A DNA stretch of 64,000 nucleotides, taken from positions 124,001 through 188,000 of the forward strand of contig QPGO01000123.1 of assembly GCA_008632985.1 (NCBI GenBank). The letters run 5' to 3'. The stretch is from Psammoneis japonica. Lineage: Eukaryota. Made by a program: the position numbers and the translations under genes. Positions 6,891 through 37,000 of the stretch are shown piece after piece. Each line of letters starts with the position of its first letter. The first letter of the stretch is position 1. The notes beneath the pieces are model-generated. The model was not told the DNA's origin. It worked only from the letters and a program-made list of their open reading frames with translations, and ran no database searches.

Positions 6891-8555
6891 CTATTTTCCG
6901 ATGGGGAGGAAACTGTGTGAGCACATTGCTTCAGCGGCAATGTCGGCTTTTGTGAGTGCACTATCTCGTGCACGAGATCCTCCCGCTCTTTCTACATCGT
7001 TGGTTGTAGCTTTGTCTACATCTTGTCTTGATAGATTCTGTTTTGTGCTGTATGAAATGATTCTGGGCTCGCCTACATTGCGGAGCTCTTGTAGCTTTGT
7101 TTTTCCATTCTTGCTCAGAAACACGCGTCTCTGAAACGGAACAAACAGAAATCCGTCCTCTGTAGTCTCTCTGCAAACTCCATCAAGATGTTGAGCCAGA
7201 TTCATCGGTACACCCACACCCAATTCATTCTGTGCTGATACAACATTGTTTTGTACCATCCACTCCAACGTGTTTGCGATACTGCAGAGTCGTCCGTGAA
7301 TCGTATGAACGTATTCCACACTCGTCATACCGCCGTCGCCTCTACCACACTTTGTTTTGCATCCCCGAGAAACATAATCCAAGAGGTTGGACACAAAGCC
7401 CAACTCTAAAAATGATTTAGAAACGGGCAAATATCCCTCAATTACGATACGACTGGCTTCATACGGCAAGAGCCAATCGGGTGGGATGGCTTTGCATCGC
7501 AGCAACAACAACGGATTCGTCGTCGTCGTGATGTTGCCTGCTTGATGCAGCAAGTAGTCGTTGCACTTTATTGAATCAAGAAGCAGTGATTGATGAAATG
7601 TCATGATTTTCTGCACCATGTCGTTTTGGACTTTGCGAGACATGATAATGTTGGAAACCGCAAGGCTGAACACTTCCACTTGGTTGAGATCGCGAGCTCG
7701 ATCTATCCACAGTGAAGCTTTCTTTTTCTTTTTGGGTTGTTGTTGCTTGGAGGCACTATTAACCCTTGTCGTACAGACAAAGGAGAGTGGCAATTGCCTG
7801 TCAAAATACGTCTTGTTTCTGTGCAAGAGCGAAAATATTAAAAGAGGTGGAGCCTTGACTGCTGCATCTTTATCAGTTTTGCAAACGTTGCAATCCCGCG
7901 GAGGACAGCCCAACAGAGAGTGTGCCAGTGATTTCGAAATGTCGACAGAATAGGGCAAGCTGACGAGCTGACATGCTGAATTCTGGTTCTCAGCCTTTGG
8001 TTTCAATAAATAAGCGGTGCTGGCAATCGATATTGCTCTGGATAGAGCTGCGCCAATGCCCGTCAAAACAGCGACTCTACCACCGAGCTCCAAGTTTTCA
8101 TATCCCCCAATGCAGTACAGAGGGTCTAAAACAACTTCACTGCTTTCATCTTTTTCTTGATGTGATGCTTCAATTTCAAAACCGTGATCTAACGCTTTGC
8201 TGTCAACGTAGTTTGCTATTCTGGGCAAGGAAACATCAGTTTCATCCACAATTTCATTCAGTTGTCGCTCCAACTCAGGAATTACTTTTGACCGGAGTTC
8301 CTTGATTTCTCTTTTATCGTCTTCTTTACTATTGGTGTCTGTTTTGTCTGGCGCCAAGGAACGTTGCAACGACTTTAGTCGAGCTCGAGCATGATTGAGC
8401 TGGAACAAGACCCTCCGTCGTTCCGTATCCAGCGTTTGAAGCCGAACGAGGAGTTCGTGATCGCTGCTTCTGTACCGAAGTTCTTGCCATTGTTTCACTT
8501 CTTCCAAGATGCCGCCTTCCTCAGAAGGTCTGAGCAGCTCCAGGTCCAAGGGCAT
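6891..8555 (-). CDS. Seryl-tRNA-synthetase-like protein with degenerate catalytic motifs
   Basis: MPLDLELLR start, coiled-coil arm, IEGYLP..ELGFVSNLLDYVSR and YVHTIHGRLC match SerRS layout; motif 2 and motif 3 arginines not recognisable. Confidence 0.75.
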   Translation of the reverse strand: MPLDLELLRPSEEGGILEEVKQWQELRYRSSDHELLVRLQTLDTERRRVLFQLNHARARLKSLQRSLAPDKTDTNSKEDDKREIKELRSKVIPELERQLNEIVDETDVSLPRIANYVDSKALDHGFEIEASHQEKDESSEVVLDPLYCIGGYENLELGGRVAVLTGIGAALSRAISIASTAYLLKPKAENQNSACQLVSLPYSVDISKSLAHSLLGCPPRDCNVCKTDKDAAVKAPPLLIFSLLHRNKTYFDRQLPLSFVCTTRVNSASKQQQPKKKKKASLWIDRARDLNQVEVFSLAVSNIIMSRKVQNDMVQKIMTFHQSLLLDSIKCNDYLLHQAGNITTTTNPLLLLRCKAIPPDWLLPYEASRIVIEGYLPVSKSFLELGFVSNLLDYVSRGCKTKCGRGDGGMTSVEYVHTIHGRLCSIANTLEWMVQNNVVSAQNELGVGVPMNLAQHLDGVCRETTEDGFLFVPFQRRVFLSKNGKTKLQELRNVGEPRIISYSTKQNLSRQDVDKATTNDVERAGGSRARDSALTKADIAAEAMCSHSFLPIGK

Positions 8556-17946: not shown

Positions 17947-18168
17947 TCTGCTAAAAGCATAGAAAGACGTTGCGGACGAATCGTTTAAAGATTGTTGCTT
18001 TATTTCTCGTGTTTATTGCAGTGGCTTTAGCTTCAGGCCTGTTTTCAGCTTTACTTGCGTTGCGTTGGGTTGGATCTTTGTCTTCGTCACAGATCTTTTC
18101 GCACGACGGTGGCGCGCGCAACTGTTTTTCAGCTTTGGAGCTTTGACGACGTCGGATCTTTGTCTTCG

Positions 18169-18341
18169 GTTCCCTAGAGTGCAACTCCAACTTGTCAAAG
18201 GATGGTGGTGGCTATAATGTCTCCACCCACACTAGGCGCTAAGGTGCCTATAGAATACACACTCTAGTGTCAAGGGCTAACCGAGTCTAGTAGTTCAGGG
18301 TTTAAACTCTTAAACCCCAAATTGCTGGACTCGAGCTGGTC
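18169..18341 (-). repeat. Split direct repeat B2 (terminal, retains TpA)
   Basis: Aligns with 18672-18846. Confidence 0.92.
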
Positions 18342-18388
18342 CTTGTGGTCGAGCGGCTCGGTCGACACCTCCGGGCGGGTGGGCAGGA

Positions 18389-18671
18389 AAAAAGAAAATT
18401 TGTGCACCATCTAGCGTGTCGGCTGGTTGGTGCTCCAAATTGTGAGCTGTTGTGAACCATTGGTGGCGAAGCCAATCTTCGTGTCTTTTTCCAAATCCTG
18501 GTGTTGAATCAACGTGGGGGGCCACTTGATTGTTTGCATTGGCAGCGTTCCCATTGAGGTCGAGTGCCCGAGATCACTTTTTAATCCAACACCTGGTCCG
18601 GATCTGTCAAAGAACATCCGTTCTCAATTCATCATTTGTCCGAGAACCCGTCAATTGGGGCAAGTGATGAG
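18389..18671 (-). repeat. Split direct repeat A2
   Basis: Aligns with 25993-26276. Confidence 0.92.
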
Positions 18672-18846
18672 GTTCCCCAGAGTGCAACTCCAACTCATCA
18701 AAGGATGGGGTGGTGGCCACAATGTCTCCACCCACACTGGGTGCCAAGGCGCCCACAGAACACACAAACTGGTGTCAAGGGCTAACCGAGTCTAGTGGTT
18801 CAGGGTTTAAACTCTCAAACCCCAAATTGCTAGACTCGAGCTGGTC
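18672..18846 (-). repeat. Split direct repeat B1 (directly abutting A2)
   Basis: Aligns with 18169-18341; differences are mainly TA->CA/TG. Confidence 0.92.
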
Positions 18847-19800
18847 ACATCCGCCGGCAAATCGCGCCGTCCCTTCATTTCCAACCCCAGGTCCAAGGTG
18901 AGAACACCACAGCCCCGCGGCAAGTCCGCGGAGAGGGCCCTGGAAGGTGGAATGACAGTCGCATCCTCAAAGGATCATCCAAAGAGCTCACCGGAGCAAA
19001 GCCATCCGAGCCAGAAGACAGTGTTAGCAAGCCCTGCTTGGGCCAATTCACGCTGAAGCGCCGGAGAGGTAGAGGCACAGCAACGGCGGTCCAGGTCGTG
19101 GTCGAGCCACACAACGTGCCGCTCGAGAAGGGCCACGGAGGGTTTGGTCTCGTTGCCCAAACAAGCACTCATGCCAGTGGCAAACAATTGAGTGCTGAGG
19201 TCATCGGTGGTCCTGCACGGAATGTGCAGGAGCCGATTTTTGTCCATGACAGCAGCGCCGGGGCGTGCGATCATCATGTCCCACGCGAAGAACTGCGAAG
19301 CTGCACTGTGCAATTGTCACACCGTCCCAAAGGAGACGGGCTCCCCTTTCTTCCCTGGGCAGAGGCTGTGCTGTTCCTGAGCCCATGGCAAGGTCACCTT
19401 GGGCCCATTGGGGGGCCGGGATGGCGGAGTCGTCTTCAAAATGGGGACTTGAAACATGGACTCGAATTTGCGTGGAGCATTGAGTTTTTGTTGGCACTGG
19501 GCGTGTGTCCCAGATGACCAGGCATGAGCCATGTCTAGAACCTGCATCCGTTCTAATGCCATGAGCCACCAATCTCTAGACAAAGTGAGTTCTCAATCCA
19601 AAACGCTCCGGACCGTGCACTTCTCGCAAATGAAATGTGCCCATTGCCGGATCTTGGAGGGCAGCGTGAGCCCACCGGCATGCTTCCGTTGTGTTGCAAA
19701 CGGTGGCCCAGCCTTGAAACACCCAGGGTGGCAGCACACCCCACACGGTGAACATTGTGTGCCGGAGCTGAACAAAAAGCCGGTCCCCGCAAAAGAACAC
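18847..19800 (-). pseudogene. Tyrosine recombinase remnant, C-terminally deleted
   Basis: FWLGWLCSGELFG (GWLRxGE first catalytic box with R->C) and LEMKG, then runs into B1; HxxR and Tyr boxes not found. Confidence 0.65.
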
Positions 19801-19812
19801 ATCACCAACGGG

Positions 19813-21972
19813 TCACGAGTGGAGGCACCGCAGTGGCAGCCCGTGCAGTGTGTCAGCCTGTTTCTCATGCCACCGAGCCATTCCTGCTGGGGCATGTGGC
19901 TCCACCCTGTGAGTTGGAACAGACGGCAAGGTGCAATGGTGAGGGCCAAGACACAGGACAACAATGGGGATTTGCAAGTGCGGTGGATGTGCGAGGGGCG
20001 TCCACGGGTCTTGGGGAAATGTCGTCGGCAGCTCTTGGATGCACCGCAACAGCCCATGCCAGAAGGCGGGAATGACCCGCGGCACAAAGAGCAGCGTGGA
20101 CGTGGTGAGAGGGCGCTCGGCACACGCCGTGAGGAGGAAAGTGAGCAGCTGTCGTGCAATTTTTGGAGGCAGAAACCACACAGTGAGCCGGTCGAACACA
20201 TGCCGGGCTGTCCATGCGGCACTCCATTCCTGAAAATGCCAAGAGTCGTGCCGGAGGGCACTGGCAAACTCGCTTGCCAAGGCAGGGTCAGGGATCAAGG
20301 GTTCAAAAATCACCGCATTGAGCTGGCTCTGGTCCTCAAGTTCATGTGGGACACTGGCCCACACCCCGCGGCTCAACCCATCCGTCATCTGCCTGATCAT
20401 GACAACCCCCGGCACATGCACCACTTGAAGGCTGCAGCCCAATTCAAGCTCAATGATCCAAATCTGCTCAATCAGGGTGTGCAGCCCCGGTGATGATGAT
20501 GAGCTGGATGCTGCCACCCAGCACGTCACAAGGTTGTCAGTGAAGTAGAAAATGGTCACGCCCTGGACGTCCCGAGATGGCAACGTACGCAGGTGTGTGA
20601 GGGCAAGGAGGAGCATCTTCAGCTCCTTCCAGTTGGATGAGAAATGGTGCACTGCAGGGCTCCACTGACTCATCCACATGCGCAGGGACTGGTCCCTGGG
20701 CCCCAGTGTCCCGCCAGCTCTGGTGCCGCTTCCGTCACCCCACGTTGGGAGCAGGGTTGCAGAGTGCACCGAACGGGCTGTCCGCCCCTGACCACCATGC
20801 AGGTGCGCTTCCCACCAGCTCAGATCTCGGAACATGTCTGGAGTCAGTCGGGCTCTCGTACAGTGCAGATCAGCACCAGTCCCTGACCCCGGGGGATGCA
20901 CCAACGAGTGCAGTCTCCGAAGGTGTGTGTGTCCTAGTCGGAGTGGAGTGGCATCCAACAGGGATTCCAAGGTCCCAGAGAGCACCAACAGGGCAAGTCA
21001 AGAATGCTCCCAAGTCGGTCCGAGAGGCAGGACGTGCTGTGTCACAGCCAACCCCTGCTCTCGTTTATCCCTCGGAATCACCAACGTGGGGATTCCTGTT
21101 GTGTCAAACAGGAATCCGCAGTGCTTCGCCACTTGGGATGGCGGGTGACATTTCAGTGGATGGCACAACAGGCCAACATCCACTGCCACATCAAAGAAGA
21201 AGCTACGAGCCTCGCAGGCGCTCTCGTGCGTCGGTCCATGAATCGCAAAGTTGTCCACAAAGACCCACATCTTGATTCCCGGGAGGCCGTCACATCGCAT
21301 CAGGACCAGACCATGTCCCAACTTCGGGTCGTAGGTCTCAGCGCATGACAGCTCGGTCCACCAACTGTTGACCCGGGGAGTGTCACCAAAGAGCCGGGAC
21401 GCGCTTTCTCTGAGCTTCCTCACAAAGGCGTTCCCATGCCGTCCACCCAGGGCGGGACAATTCCCGCCCCCCACAGGCAGACCTAGCCAATCCAGCAATT
21501 CTTGGCTCAACGGATGCATCAACCCAAGCCATGGTCTGTCGTTAGGGTGCGTGGTGAACTGATGGAAAAAGTTGGAAGCATCGACCACCGCTGTGTAGCC
21601 ACCCTGGTGCATTTCATCCAGAATGTGCGTAACCCGGGGAAGGAATGCTGGATCGTTCCCCACCACTTCATTTTGACCACCACTTCGCATGTCGGCAATC
21701 ACTCTCCATTCACCAGGTTGCCCTGGTTTGGGGACGCAGAATGAGGGTGTTGTCGCCAGAACTGCTGAAGGATCGGGCACAACCCCCAAGGCACCGATGT
21801 CGGTTAACTCATCCACGAATTGCGTGGTGATCTGTAGCTGCTCTTCATCCATTGGCGCATTCGGCATCATCTTGGATTCCGGCGGTTGTGGGAAGTTCAT
21901 CCGGATCCCCTCTTGCAGATCGTCCCAATGTTCGGGGGGGAATTCCCACCACAGCACCTGCAAGTGGTGCAA
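19813..21972 (-). pseudogene. DIRS-type reverse transcriptase and RNase H
   Basis: VPKPGQPGEWRVIADM, VVDASNFFHQF, GLPVG, WVFVDNF, KHCGFLFDT; RNase H WGDGSG, SSNWKEL, FTDNLV, HVPG, TDGLSRG. Confidence 0.9.
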
Positions 21973-22193
21973 GTCGGTGCCCCCACATCGTCACAGTTGT
22001 TTCTGTGTCTCTCCAGGGCAACCACCCCTTGACTGATCATGTCTTCGCGTCTCTCACGCGGGTGCCGTTCCACCGCACAGAGTGGGTTCTCCAGTCGCTG
22101 CAGGTGCCAAACCCCGCCCTCAGAGAGATCCGGCGGCGTCCATTTGAATTCACCATGACCCGCATCATCCGACCCATTCTCCGATTCCTGGGG

Positions 22194-23330
22194 TCAAGCT
22201 GAGATGGGCTCGTTAGGTTTTGCAAGCCGGAGGGTGGGCCATCGTTCCGATTCCGGTTCCAACGTGAAGCTCCTTCCCACATGCTCCCAGTGGAACACGC
22301 TTGTGGTCGATCCAGCATCCATGCGGGCCTCAGGGATGTGCCAGTCCTTGGGAACTCCCAGTCCTCGCCCAAGCTCCTCCTGAGTGAGATGTCGAACCCG
22401 CTTGGCAGCACGAATCCAGGCCCCCGCCTTTGCAGGCATGGGCTCTGTTGCCGCTTCATGGATCCGGGCCCCGCGTGGGATCTCACCTTTCACACGTCGG
22501 ACGAGGCCCTTGGGCATGAGTGGGTTGCTCACAGCCCGGGGTCAGGTGCCTCTGTGCAGCGCATCCCAGGTCCAGCGAGTCGCACACGGCTTGGCTGCTC
22601 GTGCGACTGGGAGCCGGCTCTGGTCGATGGCGCCACCCACTTCGGCCACCGCTGCTCGCCGGAACCAAGATTCATAACCCAGCCTTGCCCAGCATGTGCG
22701 GGCGGCTTTTCCCGTGGGTCCGTTTTCCCAGGTGATTGCATGTGCTTGCCAGCTCTCTAAGACTACCTTCGGGCAAGAGTCTGGGGTGGTGGTGTCCACT
22801 GGTTCTTCCCAACGTTCAGCACAAGGCAGTTTCCTTGGTGTGTGGATAAACCCCCACTCCACCACCAGCAAGTCCACTGGATTCTGCGCCAAGAGGCGCG
22901 TCTTGACCCTGGGGCCGGTGACTGTCACCACCGCATCTGACTTGGGTCCAACGGGATTGCCTTGCCGGCGGACACACAGCTTCTGCTCCAGCCTTGGCCA
23001 CGCGACCTTCATGGTCTCAGCACCACACTCGAAGGTGCCGCACGACTTGATCCACGCAAGTGCTTCCCTGGGTGGAGGCACACTCTGCATCTCCATTCCC
23101 TCTACAGTCGGGTCCTCAACATCCTGGACACTCTCAGTGTGGACACCTCGAGGTCTGGTTCCATCGTCGCTTGTTTCCAGGGCTGACGGACAGTGGATCC
23201 AGTCGCGCCCGGCTCCCAGCAATCCCTCCTCCAGTGCCATCGTGTGGGATCTGTCCACCGCGATTACAAGAGTCCGCACACCAATCGTAAGCTTGCCCAG
23301 TGTGCAGGAGGTTAAGCAGGGAGTGAGCAA
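22194..23330 (-). pseudogene. Degenerate C5 cytosine-methyltransferase-like domain upstream of RT
   Basis: Ordered motif-like blocks FECGAETM (I), VDLLVVEWG (IV), PKVVLESW (VI), LGYES..GGAIDQSR (VIII), RHLTQEELGRGLGVPKDW (IX), TSVFHWEHVG (X); in-frame TGA at 22542. Confidence 0.55.
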
Positions 23331-25948
23331 TTGGGGTGCCTAATGTGATGTACACTGTGCGACGCGAGGAGGAGCGGTGCGGCTTGACAATTGGTTCTTG
23401 GGCCGGATGATCCAGGCCCAGTGTTCGCTCCGACTCCGGAGCCCATTCCATGTTCAGCTTGGAGGTGCGCATCTCGGAGATGAAGGTCTCAAGATCACCG
23501 TCAGGGTCCTCCTCAAGGTGCTTGGTGAGCTCGGCACACGCGGCCTTGACCTTGTCGAGGGTGCAGTTGGTCTTTGTCACCCCCCTCAGAAGCTTTCTGG
23601 CTTGTGATGCCGGGAGATCCTTGGCGGGGCAGTTGGCGCGTCCCTCACCGTGAAGATTGGTTCGGTGACACACGGCGCACCTGCGGGAGGAGCCCGTGGC
23701 CGTGCTGTTGTGGGATCCAGATTGGTTGACCACCGCACAGAGATTCTGCATCTGATCAAACAGGTCGTCACAGATTTCCTCATGGCGGAAGCGGTGTTGA
23801 TGAAACGCTTCACGGAGACAAACATGGCACAACAGGATGTGGGACCGGAAATTGGGTGCAAGCATTCAAGTGAGCCTGAGTCTTTTGGCATGGTGTTTGA
23901 CCATGCTCTCGGCCCACCCGTCCTTGCACTCCACCTCCCCCTCTTCAGAGTGTAGGGATTCCTGGGCCAGAGACAACAGAGCCAGATGGCATTCGCATGT
24001 CTTCTGAAGGACTCGAGGCAGAAGCCCGTGCCGCAAGCAGTCCTCAATGAACCGGGGCGAGCATCGTCGCTCGTAAAGAAAGGCCTGGAACCGGTCATTC
24101 TGAACCGGCCAGAGCTTCTCCCATGCTTTGGAGACTTCCTTCATGATCCGCATGAGGTCTGACCGGTTCTTGATCAATCCCAGAGTGTTTGAACGCTTGG
24201 TCTGCCAGGCACTGTCATGTCCGGTCCGGCTCCGCTCGAGCGCACCCAGATGTTTCAAGAGAGCTGCCACAAGCTCCTCCTTGCTGGGTGTGTTTTCAAA
24301 GAAATCGGCACCACACACACCTGGTGACGCCGTCACATCCACACTCTGATTCAGAAACTCCGCCCAATCTCTCGCATCCAGCCCCGGTGGGCACAGCAGC
24401 TGTTCCACTGCCGTCGCATTCAAAACCGCTTCGCCAAAGATCTTGGTGGCATCTCCAATCAATGGGTTGTTGCCCCAATGTTCCAAATTGAGCCGGCGTG
24501 TCTCCGCAATGCCGTCCTCATCCGTGAGAATGGGAGCGGCGGCCGAGGGTGCGGCAGGCGTGCCCACCGCCGAGCAGGGGGGAGGGCCAGTTGCTCTCAC
24601 CCCTGAAACTCCCGCGGATGGTGCAGGTGCAATCGGTCTGGCCATGGGAGGCACTGGTGACGGAACTCGGGGCACCAGGGGAGGCACTTCCTCCCGCCAC
24701 CGTGTAGCCTCGTCAAGAGTGGCGAAGGTTCGCACATGTCGGAACCCCCGGCTCAAAGCCAGGGCCACATTCGCATCAGAGGTGCAGACATGCTGCTCAT
24801 GTGAACCACGAACGAAGCCATGCCACCGTTCCCCCGGCATTGTGGGTTGACGACGATGCCACTCTTCTGCTTCTCGCTGAGTGGGGAATGTGGCGCGCAA
24901 GATGGCACCCACTCCAAGCCAGCATTCCAAGTCCTCACGAGCATTGCAAATGCGCCGAGTCTCGTCTGGTTCACTCAACCCATGCCAAAGGGGTTCGGGC
25001 CCCGGCAGCGACGGTCGAGATGCCATTGGAGGAGGTGATGGATTGGCAGCAACAGGAGTGGTGCCTGGCCCTGGGAAAGGGATCCTGGGGCCAGCAGCCC
25101 CCTGACCAGAGAGGTCATTCCGAGCTTCAACTGGACGTGTCCCAGTTGAAGTCGAGTGTCCCAGTTGAAGTCGAAACTGTGACAGGGTCCGCTGCCTGTT
25201 GTGACAGATTGTCTGTCTGCGGAGTGACCGGTGACAGCAGGCACTCAGTCGTGATCGGCGGGTCGTGCAATTCAGTCCCGCCGAAGGTCACCTGCCTCTG
25301 TTCTCGGTGGTCTTCTCCCCCTCGGATCTCATTGAGCTCCTGCTGAAGATTCCGGTCCAGATCCGCCATTGCTTGACGGAGCGGAGTGGCGCCGGTGAAT
25401 GACTCATCGTTGGTGGTTGCAACTGATTCTTCGTCCGGCTCTTGATCGTCCAGGAGAGCCTCAGCCACGCGTGACATCTCGTCGTTTTCGGCCGAGACCC
25501 GCGCGTCTCGCTCTTCGCAGGTCAATCCCATCCGGAGCCGGTCCAGTCGGCCGTCAACCACGTCCCTGTGCCGTCCGCTGGCATTGGGGAACCTCTCATA
25601 GAATCGAGGAGGGGCCCGGTGGGCTGTCTCTTGTGACTTCTTATGGTGCCCACGATGGGTACACCCGTCGCGGGTTGCCCCGCATGCGCAGTGAATCGTC
25701 TGCCCACACTCCTTGCGGGTCATGCAGACCCGGCACAGGTTGTCTGGAGTGAGGTCGACCAGGTCAGAGGGGGCCACCAGATCATCTTGGAGAGTCACAC
25801 TTCCCACTGACGAGGTCTCGGAGAGTTGTTTGTCCTTGACAGTGCCGTCATCCGCGTCGTCCGTGTCCAATGTGACGGTTTCAGGCCCAGAGACTAAGAC
25901 ACCGGTCGTGGTGGAAGAGTCCGGTGGACTGCCGTCGATGCGTGTCAT
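23134..25948 (-). pseudogene. gag-like ORF1 with N-terminal Cys cluster, two RNase H1 N-terminal (viroplasmin)-like repeats and a C-terminal zinc knuckle
   Basis: ORFs 25127-25948, 23866-25026 and 23134-23865; WHG..IC/VC..TF.T..EA..W twice; CAVCHRTNLH..CP. Confidence 0.65.
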
Positions 25949-25992
25949 GGCGTTGTAGCCGTCAGGTAGACAGCAGTCCAGTTCCCCCCTGC

Positions 25993-26276
25993 AAAAAGAA
26001 AATTTTTTGCACTGTCTAGCGTGTCAGCTCGTTGGTGCTCCAAATTGTGAGCTGTTGTGAACTGTTGGCGGCGAAGCCAATCTTCGTGTCTTTTTCCAAA
26101 TCCTGGTGTTGAAAATCAACGTGGGGCCACTTGATTGTTCGCATTAGCAGCGTTCCCATTGAGGTCGAGTGCCCGAGATCACTTTTTAATCCAACACCTA
26201 GTCCGGATCTGTCGAAGAACATCCGTTCTCAATTCGTCGTTTGTCCGAGAACCTGTCAATTAGGGCAAGTGATGAG
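25993..26276 (-). repeat. Split direct repeat A1 (5' terminus of element)
   Basis: Aligns with 18389-18671 and retains more TA/CG. Confidence 0.92.
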
Positions 26277-33583: not shown

Positions 33584-33985
33584 TGTGGGCACACGGCAGT
33601 TTACGCCGCAGAGATGGAAATGGTGGCAACAGACAACTTAGGAGGTGTGAATTGACCAGTCGCTAAATTGTGAGAACAAAAACTGCTCCACTCGACAACC
33701 AACAAGAATTTGTAAAGAACGAGAAGTGACCCACATTTGCGCTGAACTCAATGCAGATGAACACAGTGAAAAGACTTGGCAGGAATGAGAAGTTCTTGAT
33801 TGCACAAAAGAAAAGAAGAAGCGGGGCTCAATTCTTGATTTGAACCCAAGACCTCCGATCTCATTCGTTTCTCGAGCTGTGATTGGGTGAGTCGTTGATG
33901 GTGGTTGATGGCGGTTTCTGAGCGGTCATTGTCACACGCAGGACTTGATGGCACACTGATGCTTGAACATGTGTGTGTTCTCACA
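33584..33985 (-). repeat. 3' LTR (402 bp, heavily TpA-mutated)
   Basis: Aligns end to end with 39009-39413. Confidence 0.95.
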
Positions 33986-33992
33986 CTCCCTC
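33986..33992 (-). other. Polypurine tract GAGGGAG
   Basis: Immediately precedes the 3' LTR on the minus strand. Confidence 0.75.
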
Positions 33993-34012
33993 ACACCGAA
34001 ATGTCCAAGTTG

Positions 34013-37000
34013 TTGCCATCCCTGAAGCAAAAGACGATGGCGAGTGAATGTCGACAGGTCCGGCATTTTTGTCAGGAAGTCAGCCTGTTGGAGTTTGGTT
34101 CCAATGGCTTCTTCAATGAGCCTGGCAGAGAGGGCTGGAAGCTCCCTGGTGGTCACCACTTTCTTTGGTGTTCCATCCTCATTGACAAGTCCCAGATCAA
34201 CAAGAATGCTGTTGATGAGGTGAGGTTGGGCCAAGTGACATCGATCCTTCTCCCTCTGAATCTTGACTCCAAGGCATTCGTCAATGGTTCCTTCGTCCTC
34301 CACATCGAATGTGGTTTGCATCAACTTGATGACCTTGTCAATTTTTGCCGCAGACTCTTTGTCAAAGACAAGACAATCATCTGTGTAGACCAGGAGGACT
34401 GTGGTTCCTCTGTGGAAGACGCATTCATCGAACTCCGATGGAACAAAACCGAGTTGCAACAAACCGGCATGGAGATGTTTGCACCAGGTTCGTCCACTGT
34501 CATGTCTGCCGCAGATGTTCTTCTCAATGCAGAGACAAAATTTGTTGCGATCAATGCCAGGAAATGTCACTCCCTCAGGTGGCTCCATGAAGGTCGGTCG
34601 TGGAATGTCCACTTGTGGATGCGCAAGGACGAAATCAACTTGTCTTGAATGCCATCCATGCATGACACACAGATGCAGAAACAGACGGATCGTTGTCCAG
34701 GACAAAGCTGGTGCATGAGTCTGGTCACAGTGCTTTCCGGGAATCTGCTTGTGCCCTCCAAGATCAAGTCGACTCTTCCACTTGTAGACTTCTCGTGTGT
34801 GAATTCGGCGCTTGCGCTTCATTGACCACACTGCTGGCAGGATCGTCTCACGTCGGGTGCATCGGATTTCTCGCATGGTTCCCAGTGATCACGAGCAGTG
34901 TGGTCTTGAATTTCCTTCACCATGGCCTCTTTGAACTGCTCTGCATCTGGCTGCTTCATCGCTTTGTGCATGCACATGGTGTCAGGATCAGCAGAGGCCT
35001 TCAAGGAGCAAGCAACAGGATCGTCAAGATCTGCTTGAAAATCTTGCTCTGAGTGCATGTCTTGGTCCAGTGCTTCGAAGTCGGCTCAACATGAGACAAC
35101 ATTGGCCTGCCGTTGCAGTTCCGACTCGATCATGCATTGTGTTGGCTGAACAGTGCATCCAGACCGTGTTGTTTGCACTGCTGGTGGAGGCTCTGGTTCG
35201 GGCACTTCGGATTCCGGCAGTGATTCTGGGGTCTCAGAGGCTCCCTCATTTGTTGCATTTGGCGCATCTTCTTCGTCTTCCACCAGTTCATCCGGTGCGG
35301 TCGCCTCCACAGGTGTTTTGGGGGTTGGCACCATGGTGTGCATTTGACGTGGTTCACGTGGTCTTGATGCGTGCCGCTGTTCCGGTCTTCTTGGTGATTC
35401 ATGGTTGAAGTTTTGAGTCTTGGAGAAAGTGGCAGATCTGCTGCCAGCGGGACTCAGTCGCACGTTGGGATTTGAGCGTTTCGATGATCATCAAATCTCA
35501 CGTGATGTTGTGGTGAGACCATCCCCGTGGCGAGATTTAGAACCAGAGCAACTGAACGAGAGTGTCTTGGTGATGGTCCAAGGTGTGGACCAACTCGAGA
35601 GCGAGGGTCCCACTTGGGCACAGCGTTGTTGGCTTGCAATTTGCTGTTTAAAATGTAGACTGGGCAGGCGAATGGATGAAAGTGCCAAATTTTGGGTTTC
35701 ACTGGTGCTTTTGAGAAAAGTTCAATCGGCAACACTTGCTGACCAGTTCTTGGCACACAGTTGCGCACAGCATTCGCGTGTCGAATGGCGCAGGGCCACA
35801 GAGCCACCTCTGCTGCTGCTGGCCATCGATGTTTAGCATGCATGAGTTGTGTGCAGGCTGAATCTTGGAGGTCGGGGATTCTTTTCTCGCAAATGCCGTT
35901 TTGAAAGTGTGCATTGACTCCACAGAAGGACATTGTTTGGTTTGCATCCTTCACTGCCTCAAGGCATGCATTGTCCGCGAAACGGCCATTGTCGGCATGA
36001 CAGTGACGAATGTGAACTCCGAGGGATCGGGAGCATGCTTCAAACGCGAGTTTCGCTGCCACTGTCTCAGCTCCAGTCAATGTTGTTTGTAAATAGACAA
36101 AAGAGAAGTCACTGCAGTGGTCAACGAATGCAGGGCGTGTCTGCAGCGTTTTGTTGTTGCCCAGCCTTTCAATTGGACCATTGGACCTGGTGTTGTCGCG
36201 TCGAGTTGGTCCACCGACACGCACTGACCAGGCTCAGCAGCTTTGAATGTTTTGTTTTGTTTGTTGTCCCCTTTGACTTTCCAAGGTACTTTTGTCGCTT
36301 TTCCGAATCGACAGGCAGCACATTGAGGGACATGGCATGTTGATGGACGACGAGGCAGGTCTCCACTGCAAGCCACAGCTTGCATGCGCGAAAATGGGAG
36401 ATGACCGAGTCGACAGTGCCAAAGCAGCAGTTCGTGGGATGGATTCGCAGGCGTGATGATCTCTTCATTTTCGATGAATCGTTCACCCTCTGAACCGTCC
36501 TCTGACAGGTTGAATTCGACTGCATAGGGTCAGACGGAGGTGTTGATTGATCCGCATGGATGGCTTCCTCGTTCGGGCTAGTTGCATCATCGGGCACTTC
36601 GTCAACCGGAACATGAGTCGGAACAGCAGGTTGCTTGGCATGATCCGAGACCCCGTCGGGCGGAGGAGCATGATTGTGAGCAACAGCAGCGTCGGGTGTG
36701 TCGTCGTCAGGCGGAATGAGGTGTGCTTGGAATGCACAAAAAATTTTGTCACGACGACAGTCGCATGTTTCACATGGCGCCTGAAGGGACGTAAAAGAAG
36801 GGGCGGAGCGAAAGACACCGACATTGCTTTTGTTGAGGGGGACCGACTGCGTGCATTTTTGGTCCATCCACTCTAAAATGATGCGGTTGCTTGTGGTTGT
36901 AGCACGAGTCCCTTCTTGGGTGCGCTCTTGTGGCTTGAGAGCTTGAGCCAGGTGTTGCGGAGACAGGAGCCGAATCGGGAGGTCGGGCACACAGCAGATG

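Follow-up and report, generated by a model that had tools for sequence, protein, structure and literature searches.

The 64,000-nucleotide stretch of the Psammoneis japonica genome analysed here (contig QPGO01000123.1, positions 124,001 to 188,000 of the forward strand; henceforth the window) carries a single retrotransposon with split direct repeats, which extends over 8.1 kb on the minus strand (26276-18168) and has a GC content of 0.55-0.60, as against 0.46-0.50 in the surrounding DNA. Read on the minus strand, its repeats are arranged in the order A1-internal-B1-A2-B2. The 5' split direct repeat A1 (25993-26276) is 93% identical to A2 (18388-18671), and B1 (18671-18846) is 89% identical to B2 (18168-18341), which forms the 3' end of the element. 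Intact relatives display the gene order gag, pol (reverse transcriptase (RT) and RNase H) and a third open reading frame (ORF), and the window matches all three. The first part of the Pol protein, which is the subject of this study, is predicted to adopt the fold of a C5 cytosine DNA methyltransferase from which the catalytic Pro-Cys signature is missing. No second copy of the element was found in the window.

The original prediction had pointed to the interval 22194-23330, in which it noted blocks resembling motifs I, IV, VI, VIII, IX and X of the C5-methyltransferases in canonical order. All of these are indeed present on the minus strand, and the domain itself occupies 23096-22245, corresponding to the first ~284 residues of Pol (numbered from the ATG at 23096). 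The upper 234 nucleotides of the interval (23097-23330) belong to the same open frame as the domain, but lie upstream of the Pol start, which we set at M82 of that frame, where the full-length relatives begin; the gag-like ORF ends at 23134. The motif I-like block reads CGTFECGAE (residues 19-27, 23042-23016). It is followed by the motif IV-like VDLLVVEWG, devoid of Pro-Cys (residues 74-82, 22877-22851), and the motif VI-like LESW (residues 113-116, 22760-22749), both exactly as had been noted earlier. Further downstream are the motif VIII-like VGGAIDQSRLPV (residues 153-164, 22640-22605), the motif IX-like RVRHLTQEELGRGLGVPK (residues 233-250, 22400-22347) and, at the position of motif X, TTSVFHWEHV (residues 264-273, 22307-22278). 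The frame of the domain is interrupted by a TGA at residue 185 (22544-22542), and a second TGA (22196-22194) lies 3' of the domain. The frame changes on either side of the domain were considered as marks of its insertion and rejected as such: the upper one is the gag/Pol boundary and the lower one a frameshift in a region collinear with the intact relatives.

The principal evidence for the fold is structural. A model of the window's 300 residues, generated with AlphaFold2 without templates from a 150-row alignment, has a predicted local distance difference test score (pLDDT) of 88.8 and a predicted template modeling score (pTM) of 0.86. In a Foldseek comparison with the PDB, ranks 1-49 among the matches listed are all C5-methyltransferases or DNMTs, with M.HhaI as the best match (E 1.3e-11, TM score 0.66/0.61). 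An independent comparison with VIA-align against 48,161 representative chains also recovered M.HhaI as the best match (Z 21.7, root-mean-square deviation 2.8 Å), with 262 of the 300 residues aligned and residues 6-284 of the model placed on 3-327 of the chain. The first 19 rows of this search are C5-methyltransferases throughout, including M.MpeI (Z 20.9), M.HaeIII (20.1), Dnmt2 (19.8), a Dcm-like enzyme (18.8), DNMT1 (18.2), DNMT5 (16.3) and DNMT3B (15.3). Row 20, with Z 8.6, is occupied by a Rossmann methyltransferase of the generic kind, so that a gap of 13 Z units separates the C5-methyltransferases from other methyltransferases. Given the two-lobe alignment and this drop to 8.6, the match extends over the two lobes and singles out the C5 class. 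As modeled, the N-terminal block of Pol has the fold of a C5 cytosine DNA methyltransferase in diverged form, with a Rossmann catalytic lobe and a small target-recognition lobe.

Sequence-level support for the C5 class is weak but consistent. A family profile of 47 rows, run against the PDB, retrieved nothing but M.HhaI variants at E<=10 (11 distinct sequences, E 0.0081-0.17), and aligned with M.HhaI in two collinear pieces, one covering motifs VI-VIII and the other motifs IX-X. When the same 47 members were scanned singly against Pfam at E<=10, PF00145 was recovered by 6 of them (best E 0.0016) and was the sole family found with more than one member, twelve other families being hit by one member each. 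The language-model neighbors of one relative all fall in the PF00145 set (30 of 30, scores 0.91-0.93). Single sequences are less informative: the window's Pol pieces gave no Pfam match at E<=1 for the domain, and a PDB search with the window domain by itself returned only an unrelated membrane protein (E 0.18). The fold proposed by the original prediction is thus matched to M.HhaI by Foldseek, by VIA-align and by the family profile; a lack of any profile or structural match, which would have spoken against the prediction, was not observed.

The residues of the active site were scored in the family alignment of 150 rows, drawn from the 329 family matches described below. The motif IV strand itself is well conserved (P73 in 122/134, V74 in 124/137 and D75 in 124/137); after it come Glu or Asp, then a residue that varies, and then mostly Gly. 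In M.HhaI and Dcm the catalytic Cys lies at +8 from the strand Asp, a position that could be scored in 117 of the 150 rows. It holds His in 27, Ser in 22, Thr in 11, Asp in 8, Gly and Ala in 7 each, Tyr in 6 and Phe in 5, besides others, and Cys in only 2 of the 117; with 18 different residues it is among the least conserved positions of the core. A Cys is present somewhere between +6 and +9 in 17/117 rows. Pro-Cys was not found in the motif IV loop of any of 22 scorable loci, and occurs in a shifted position in 1 of 135 homologues. The window copy has an LPC of its own ten residues beyond the canonical spot, inside a poorly populated insert. As Pro-Cys is missing across the relatives, its absence is a family trait and not a product of decay of the window copy, which agrees with the earlier view that it is not readily explained by TA/CG mutation alone. 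A subset of the family (loci L003, L005, L006, L007 and L033 and the representatives P0017 and P0080) shows Gly-Cys, as VDKGC or VDRGC, at exactly the canonical spacing.

Other parts of the fold are much better preserved. The motif VI block has P109 in 143/144, E114 in 135/142 and W116 in 138/142 rows, with Ser following the Glu in 73/142 (HMMER and hhalign place this block one residue apart). In motif VIII, Q159 (124/139) and R161 (120/139) are retained, and the position of the second Arg is taken by Leu, Ile, Val or Met. The motif IX-like block includes R235 (80/96) and E241 (84/91), which we take to be the counterpart of the canonical Arg-Glu. A stretch resembling part of a target-recognition domain (TRD), RPMSNLLTPxGL...DPMP, is unusually conserved for a recognition lobe (N191 in 116/124, P221 in 108/110). 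In the motif I region two glycines are kept (G20 in 86/91, G25 in 88/96), with a spacing that differs from FxGxG. C5-methyltransferases carry acidic S-adenosylmethionine (SAM)-binding residues after strands 2 and 3, the one after strand 2 being the Glu that binds the ribose; here the columns that presumably correspond to them are mostly Arg (65/89 and 102/125). The window copy retains 47 of the 51 family positions with at least 80% conservation. The domain tends to be basic, with a median isoelectric point of 9.45, and 12 of 15 near-complete domains have a net positive charge.

When the read-through of 382 residues was compared by phmmer with 1.84 billion representative proteins, 329 matches were obtained at E<=1e-3, of which 190 had E<=1e-10 and 38 E<=1e-30, covering query residues ~75-360. 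A Pfam scan of 19 relatives showed RVT_1 downstream of the domain in all 14 long ones (697-1393 amino acids (aa)). Relatives were also retrieved independently of the domain, with two RT peptide patterns taken from an alignment of nine full Pols, which yielded 49 related loci in metagenome contigs in addition to 2 weak unrelated ones. A hidden Markov model of the domain detected it in 39 of the 49; the contigs of the other 10 begin at or after Pol residue ~294, so that every retrieved locus with upstream sequence (39/39) carries the domain. In intact relatives the gag-like ORF encodes 640-810 aa, Pol 1090-1240 aa from stop to stop, and ORF3 514-636 aa. Two of the relatives' contigs have identical 127-nucleotide ends (L008, 1-127 and 10068-10194; L022, 1-127 and 10222-10348), as expected if the assembler had closed a repeat-flanked element into a circle, and L008 has an 11-copy tandem array of a 27-nucleotide unit after ORF3 (8026-8436).

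Selection was estimated as the Nei-Gojobori ratio of nonsynonymous to synonymous substitution rates (dN/dS) in three independent pairs of intact relatives (a further locus, L028, is so close to L027 that it contributes no additional information). For the domain and for the RT-RNase H-C-terminal part of Pol, respectively, the ratios are 0.11 and 0.043 in L003/L006, 0.146 and 0.06 in L008/L009, and 0.142 and 0.04 in L027/L032. With a dN/dS of 0.11-0.15 the domain is therefore kept by selection, if somewhat less tightly than the RT. Taken with its distribution, this indicates that it is a fixed and selectively maintained component of Pol throughout a large family of elements that have split direct repeats and encode gag, Pol and a probable tyrosine recombinase (YR).

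The remainder of the window element is recognizable but decayed. The gag-like ORF1 (23134-26023, minus strand, as are all the parts listed here) survives as three open pieces, 25127-26023, 23866-25287 and 23134-23865, and is matched in tblastn at 25879-25598 and 24480-23461 by ORF1 of the intact relatives L003, L008, L013 and L001. A Pfam scan of these pieces gave no family; the piece 23134-23865 contains a string that looks like a Cys/His knuckle. In Pol, the methyltransferase-fold domain is joined to the RT by a linker (21991-22244), for which the relatives have FxWxPPDLxxG...HRxNY...LWWEFPxEHW in common. In the window this linker contains the second TGA and a frameshift, located between 22011 and 21981, where two tblastn pieces in different frames overlap. 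The RT core (21145-21735) matches RVT_1 with E 5.8e-06 and 26.6 bits, under the curated threshold of 29.6. An RNase H-like region with the conserved strings FYFTDN...HVPG...DGLSRG and a C-terminal domain with an FPPP motif complete the protein (19813-20997), the stop being at 19815-19813. Over 727 residues the window Pol is 53% identical to that of L003 (tblastn). ORF3 persists as a YR-like remnant with in-frame stops (18810-19961), which covers residues 47-434 of 573 and is 39-46% identical in tblastn to ORF3 of L003, L008, L001 and L013. The Arg of its box I is replaced by Cys (WLGWLC), and the half with HxxR and the Tyr is gone, the B1 repeat beginning where ORF3 should go on. With its Pol interrupted by two TGA codons and a frameshift, and its putative recombinase truncated, the window copy is dead.

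The third ORF bears on the classification of the element. Across 11 sequences it has an invariant R...K...HxxR...W...Y pattern, and some of the clusters among its language-model neighbors have PF00589 or PF02899 in 11-40% of their members; Pfam scans and a PDB profile search with ORF3 of the relatives gave no recombinase match. In the N-terminal part of ORF3 (alignment columns ~150-260) there are invariant Cys and His residues in the arrangement CxGC...C...YH..C...CE.C, and 3 of the 11 members have faint PHD-type Pfam matches (best E 0.25). This region could form a zinc finger that precedes the recombinase core. The Pol region after RNase H (19813-20592 in the window) has conserved WFPPPE...PLTT.ALF..PR, and the 120 residues that follow RNase H were modeled by AlphaFold2 with a pLDDT of 81.3. 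All 50 of the matches listed for it by VIA-align are Rossmann methyltransferases, at a Z of only 5.4-7.7 (E. coli Dam, 6.4). The Dam-like family PF05869 was detected in none of 10 C-termini of the relatives' Pols at E<=10. On these models, Pol could contain two domains of methyltransferase origin.

In the arrangement of its repeats and genes the element agrees with Ngaro as well as with PAT-like elements, both of the DIRS order, whose gag-pol (RT/RNase H)-YR order and A1-internal-B1-A2-B2 repeats are described in the available portion of Muszewska et al. 2013 (PMC3783388). DIRS and PAT elements have a Dam-like adenine methyltransferase after RNase H, where the present family gives no Pfam match to it but shows the weak Rossmann-methyltransferase-like fold. 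Consequently, of the original assignment to a diatom-like Ngaro, the repeat layout of a YR element is borne out and the repeats and gene order agree with Ngaro, but Ngaro and PAT-like elements are not separated in view of that weak fold. The YR-like nature of the third ORF is suggested by its motif pattern and the language-model lead, and the diatom affinity by a weak lead, namely the presence of Bacillariophyta among the few labeled members of the ORF3 neighbor clusters.

Some features of the window are incidental to the domain. The element is strongly depleted of TpA, with an observed/expected ratio of 0.18 overall and 0.15 for the domain, and has an excess of CpA (1.49) and TpG (1.33). TpA is also low in the flanks (0.47 and 0.30), and amounts to 0.59-0.87 in 16 related elements from other sources. 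Such a composition is what a mutational bias of this genome from TpA to CpA/TpG would produce, the "mutator" mentioned in the original prediction. The window also has a second, unrelated retroelement, represented by a copia-type RT (33932-34888, minus strand, RVT_2 E 4.6e-28). The flanks of the element that bears the domain contain long open frames with eukaryotic domains, and the host DNA includes a seryl-tRNA-synthetase-like ORF.

The closest precedent for the architecture is SymbioDIRS-Dnmt3 of Symbiodinium, a group of YR elements with a Dnmt3 domain inside Pol, for which de novo CG methylation was reported (PMC5890265, de Mendoza et al. 2018). Its domain conservation was graded by those authors, in the part of the article available, by hmmsearch e-value. 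Going by that partial description, the two families share a retrotransposon of YR type (here with a putative YR) with A-coding-B-A-B repeats and a C5-methyltransferase-fold domain in the same Pol as the RT, and are set apart by the published account of a Dnmt3-type domain, whereas the present one has no conserved Cys or Pfam-level match. The present domain also differs in standing at the extreme N-terminus of Pol and in its structure, which is nearer to that of Dnmt2 and the type II enzymes of bacteria (Z 20-22) than to that of DNMT3 (Z 15). With M.HhaI, M.HaeIII, M.MpeI and Dcm it has in common the two-lobe fold over 250-265 residues (Z 18.8-21.7) and motif-like blocks in the same order, with the residues of motifs VI, VIII and IX partly kept. 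Unlike these bacterial enzymes it has no Pro-Cys nucleophile, shows ESW in place of ENV, Leu, Ile or Val for the second Arg of motif VIII and TTSxFxWE at the position of motif X, is only 9-13% identical to them, and is fused to an RT.

The absence of a nucleophile also has parallels among host proteins. DNMT3L is a catalytically inactive DNMT paralogue that works through an active partner. The retrotransposon domain would resemble it, and likewise Dnmt3b3 (PMC7608744) and DRM3 (PMC2965745) as far as the available text of those articles goes, in combining a C5-methyltransferase fold without catalytic competence with a non-enzymatic role. According to the same partial sources, the inactive paralogues are host proteins that pair with active DNMT3 or DRM2, whereas the present domain is part of a transposon polymerase. 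A 2026 preprint (10.64898/2026.05.21.726589), in the text available, describes elements that combine DAM domains with DNMT domains and gives all the known DNMTs borne by transposable elements as methyltransferases. The available portions of PMC3783388, PMC12477816, PMC3145265 and PMC9998398 have no mention of a C5-type domain in Ngaro or DIRS elements, and among the papers listed by a full-text literature search, with supplements outside its scope, none dealt with a C5-methyltransferase fold lacking the Cys in retrotransposons of the YR type.

On balance, and with moderate confidence, we favor the proposal that the domain is a non-catalytic pseudo-methyltransferase that probably serves as a nucleic-acid-binding module of Pol. 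Since no catalytic Cys is conserved, canonical covalent C5 methyl transfer would not be possible. The nucleic-acid-binding role is suggested because conservation is highest in the recognition lobe and in the elements that face the DNA, and because the domain is basic. Such a pseudo-enzyme would hold a conserved nucleic-acid ligand by means of the motif VI Glu, the motif VIII Gln and first Arg, motif IX and the TRD-like segment. Candidate ligands would be the RNA or cDNA of the element itself, or the target DNA, and binding might take place during reverse transcription or during recombinase-mediated integration.

Several points weigh against this proposal. Concerning the fold, PF00145 was matched by none of the 19 relatives at E<=0.1, and no member reaches the Pfam cut-off. 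Comparison of the family with E. coli Dcm using hhalign gave a probability of 0.98% for Dcm alone and 1.25% for a 20-row Dcm alignment, neither of which is significant, although the latter, being composed of 74-99% identical sequences with an effective number of sequences of 1.8, makes for a weak test; the aligned piece was again the motif VI block. As to function, the loss of activity and of SAM binding is read from sequence columns only, and the role in binding nucleic acids from the pattern of conservation and the charge alone. Two of the conserved residues, the motif VI Glu and the first Arg in motif VIII, would also be required by an active enzyme. Moreover, the subclade with Gly-Cys may be active, having kept or regained a nucleophile, and the frequent His, Ser or Thr at the Cys position could act as an unconventional nucleophile.

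A more specific form of the idea can be put forward, which we regard as rather doubtful. A bacterial-type C5-methyltransferase might have been captured by a large family of YR retrotransposons, which has so far come mainly from metagenome assemblies, and turned into a catalytically silent base-flipping reader of DNA or RNA fused to the RT. Either a fixed sequence or a modified base would be recognized by its strongly conserved recognition lobe, which would thereby steer the handling of the cDNA or its integration, for instance toward or away from methylated DNA.

Less likely still is that the domain remains an active DNA or RNA methyltransferase, using a non-canonical nucleophile or a relocated Cys to methylate the cDNA of the element, as proposed for SymbioDIRS-Dnmt3. 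The strong purifying selection, the conservation of E114, Q159 and R161, the Cys at +6 to +9 in some rows together with the Gly-Cys of one subclade at canonical spacing, and the active DNMT domains documented in YR elements (PMC5890265, as available in part) would all be in keeping with it. However, it has to contend with a catalytic position that tolerates 18 different residues and is Cys in 2 rows, with a predominance of Arg in the columns that follow strands 2 and 3, and with the failure of any member to reach the PF00145 cut-off.

About equally improbable, in our estimate, is a counter-defense role, in which the domain would be a decoy or regulator that binds or titrates a host DNMT or silencing factor, or shields the cDNA from methylation. 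There are indeed DNMT paralogues without catalytic activity that exert their effect by way of partners, as the accessible accounts of DRM3 (PMC2965745) and Dnmt3b3 (PMC7608744) describe, and the CpG observed/expected ratio of the element, 0.69, indicates some depletion and is compatible with a methylating host. Against this, a dN/dS of 0.11-0.15 and a highly conserved TRD-like segment would be unusual for an arms-race interface, and the structures that come closest are those of Dnmt2 and of bacterial type II enzymes, which are monomeric, rather than DNMT3. The steady purifying selection does not favor a decoy against host methylation.

Finally, that the resemblance reflects a generic Rossmann fold or a modeling artefact, the block being an unrelated N-terminal domain of Pol, is very improbable: the empty Pfam and single-sequence PDB searches and the non-significant Dcm comparison speak for it, but the 13-unit Z gap with both lobes aligned, the confident template-free model and the convergence of three sequence-based methods on the C5-methyltransferase family speak against it.

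Cytosine methyltransferases borne by retrotransposons have earlier been described as active enzymes that let the element write its own epigenetic mark. In the family reported here the fold has been kept and the nucleophile dropped, which suggests that a transposon may put a methyltransferase fold to a use unrelated to methylation. As standard domain searches miss this family, surveys based on PF00145 would undercount methyltransferase-derived modules in mobile elements. Should the proposed role as a reader hold, these retrotransposons would have made a writer into an "epigenetic reader", unlike the elements of Symbiodinium and Klebsormidium with their active DNMTs.

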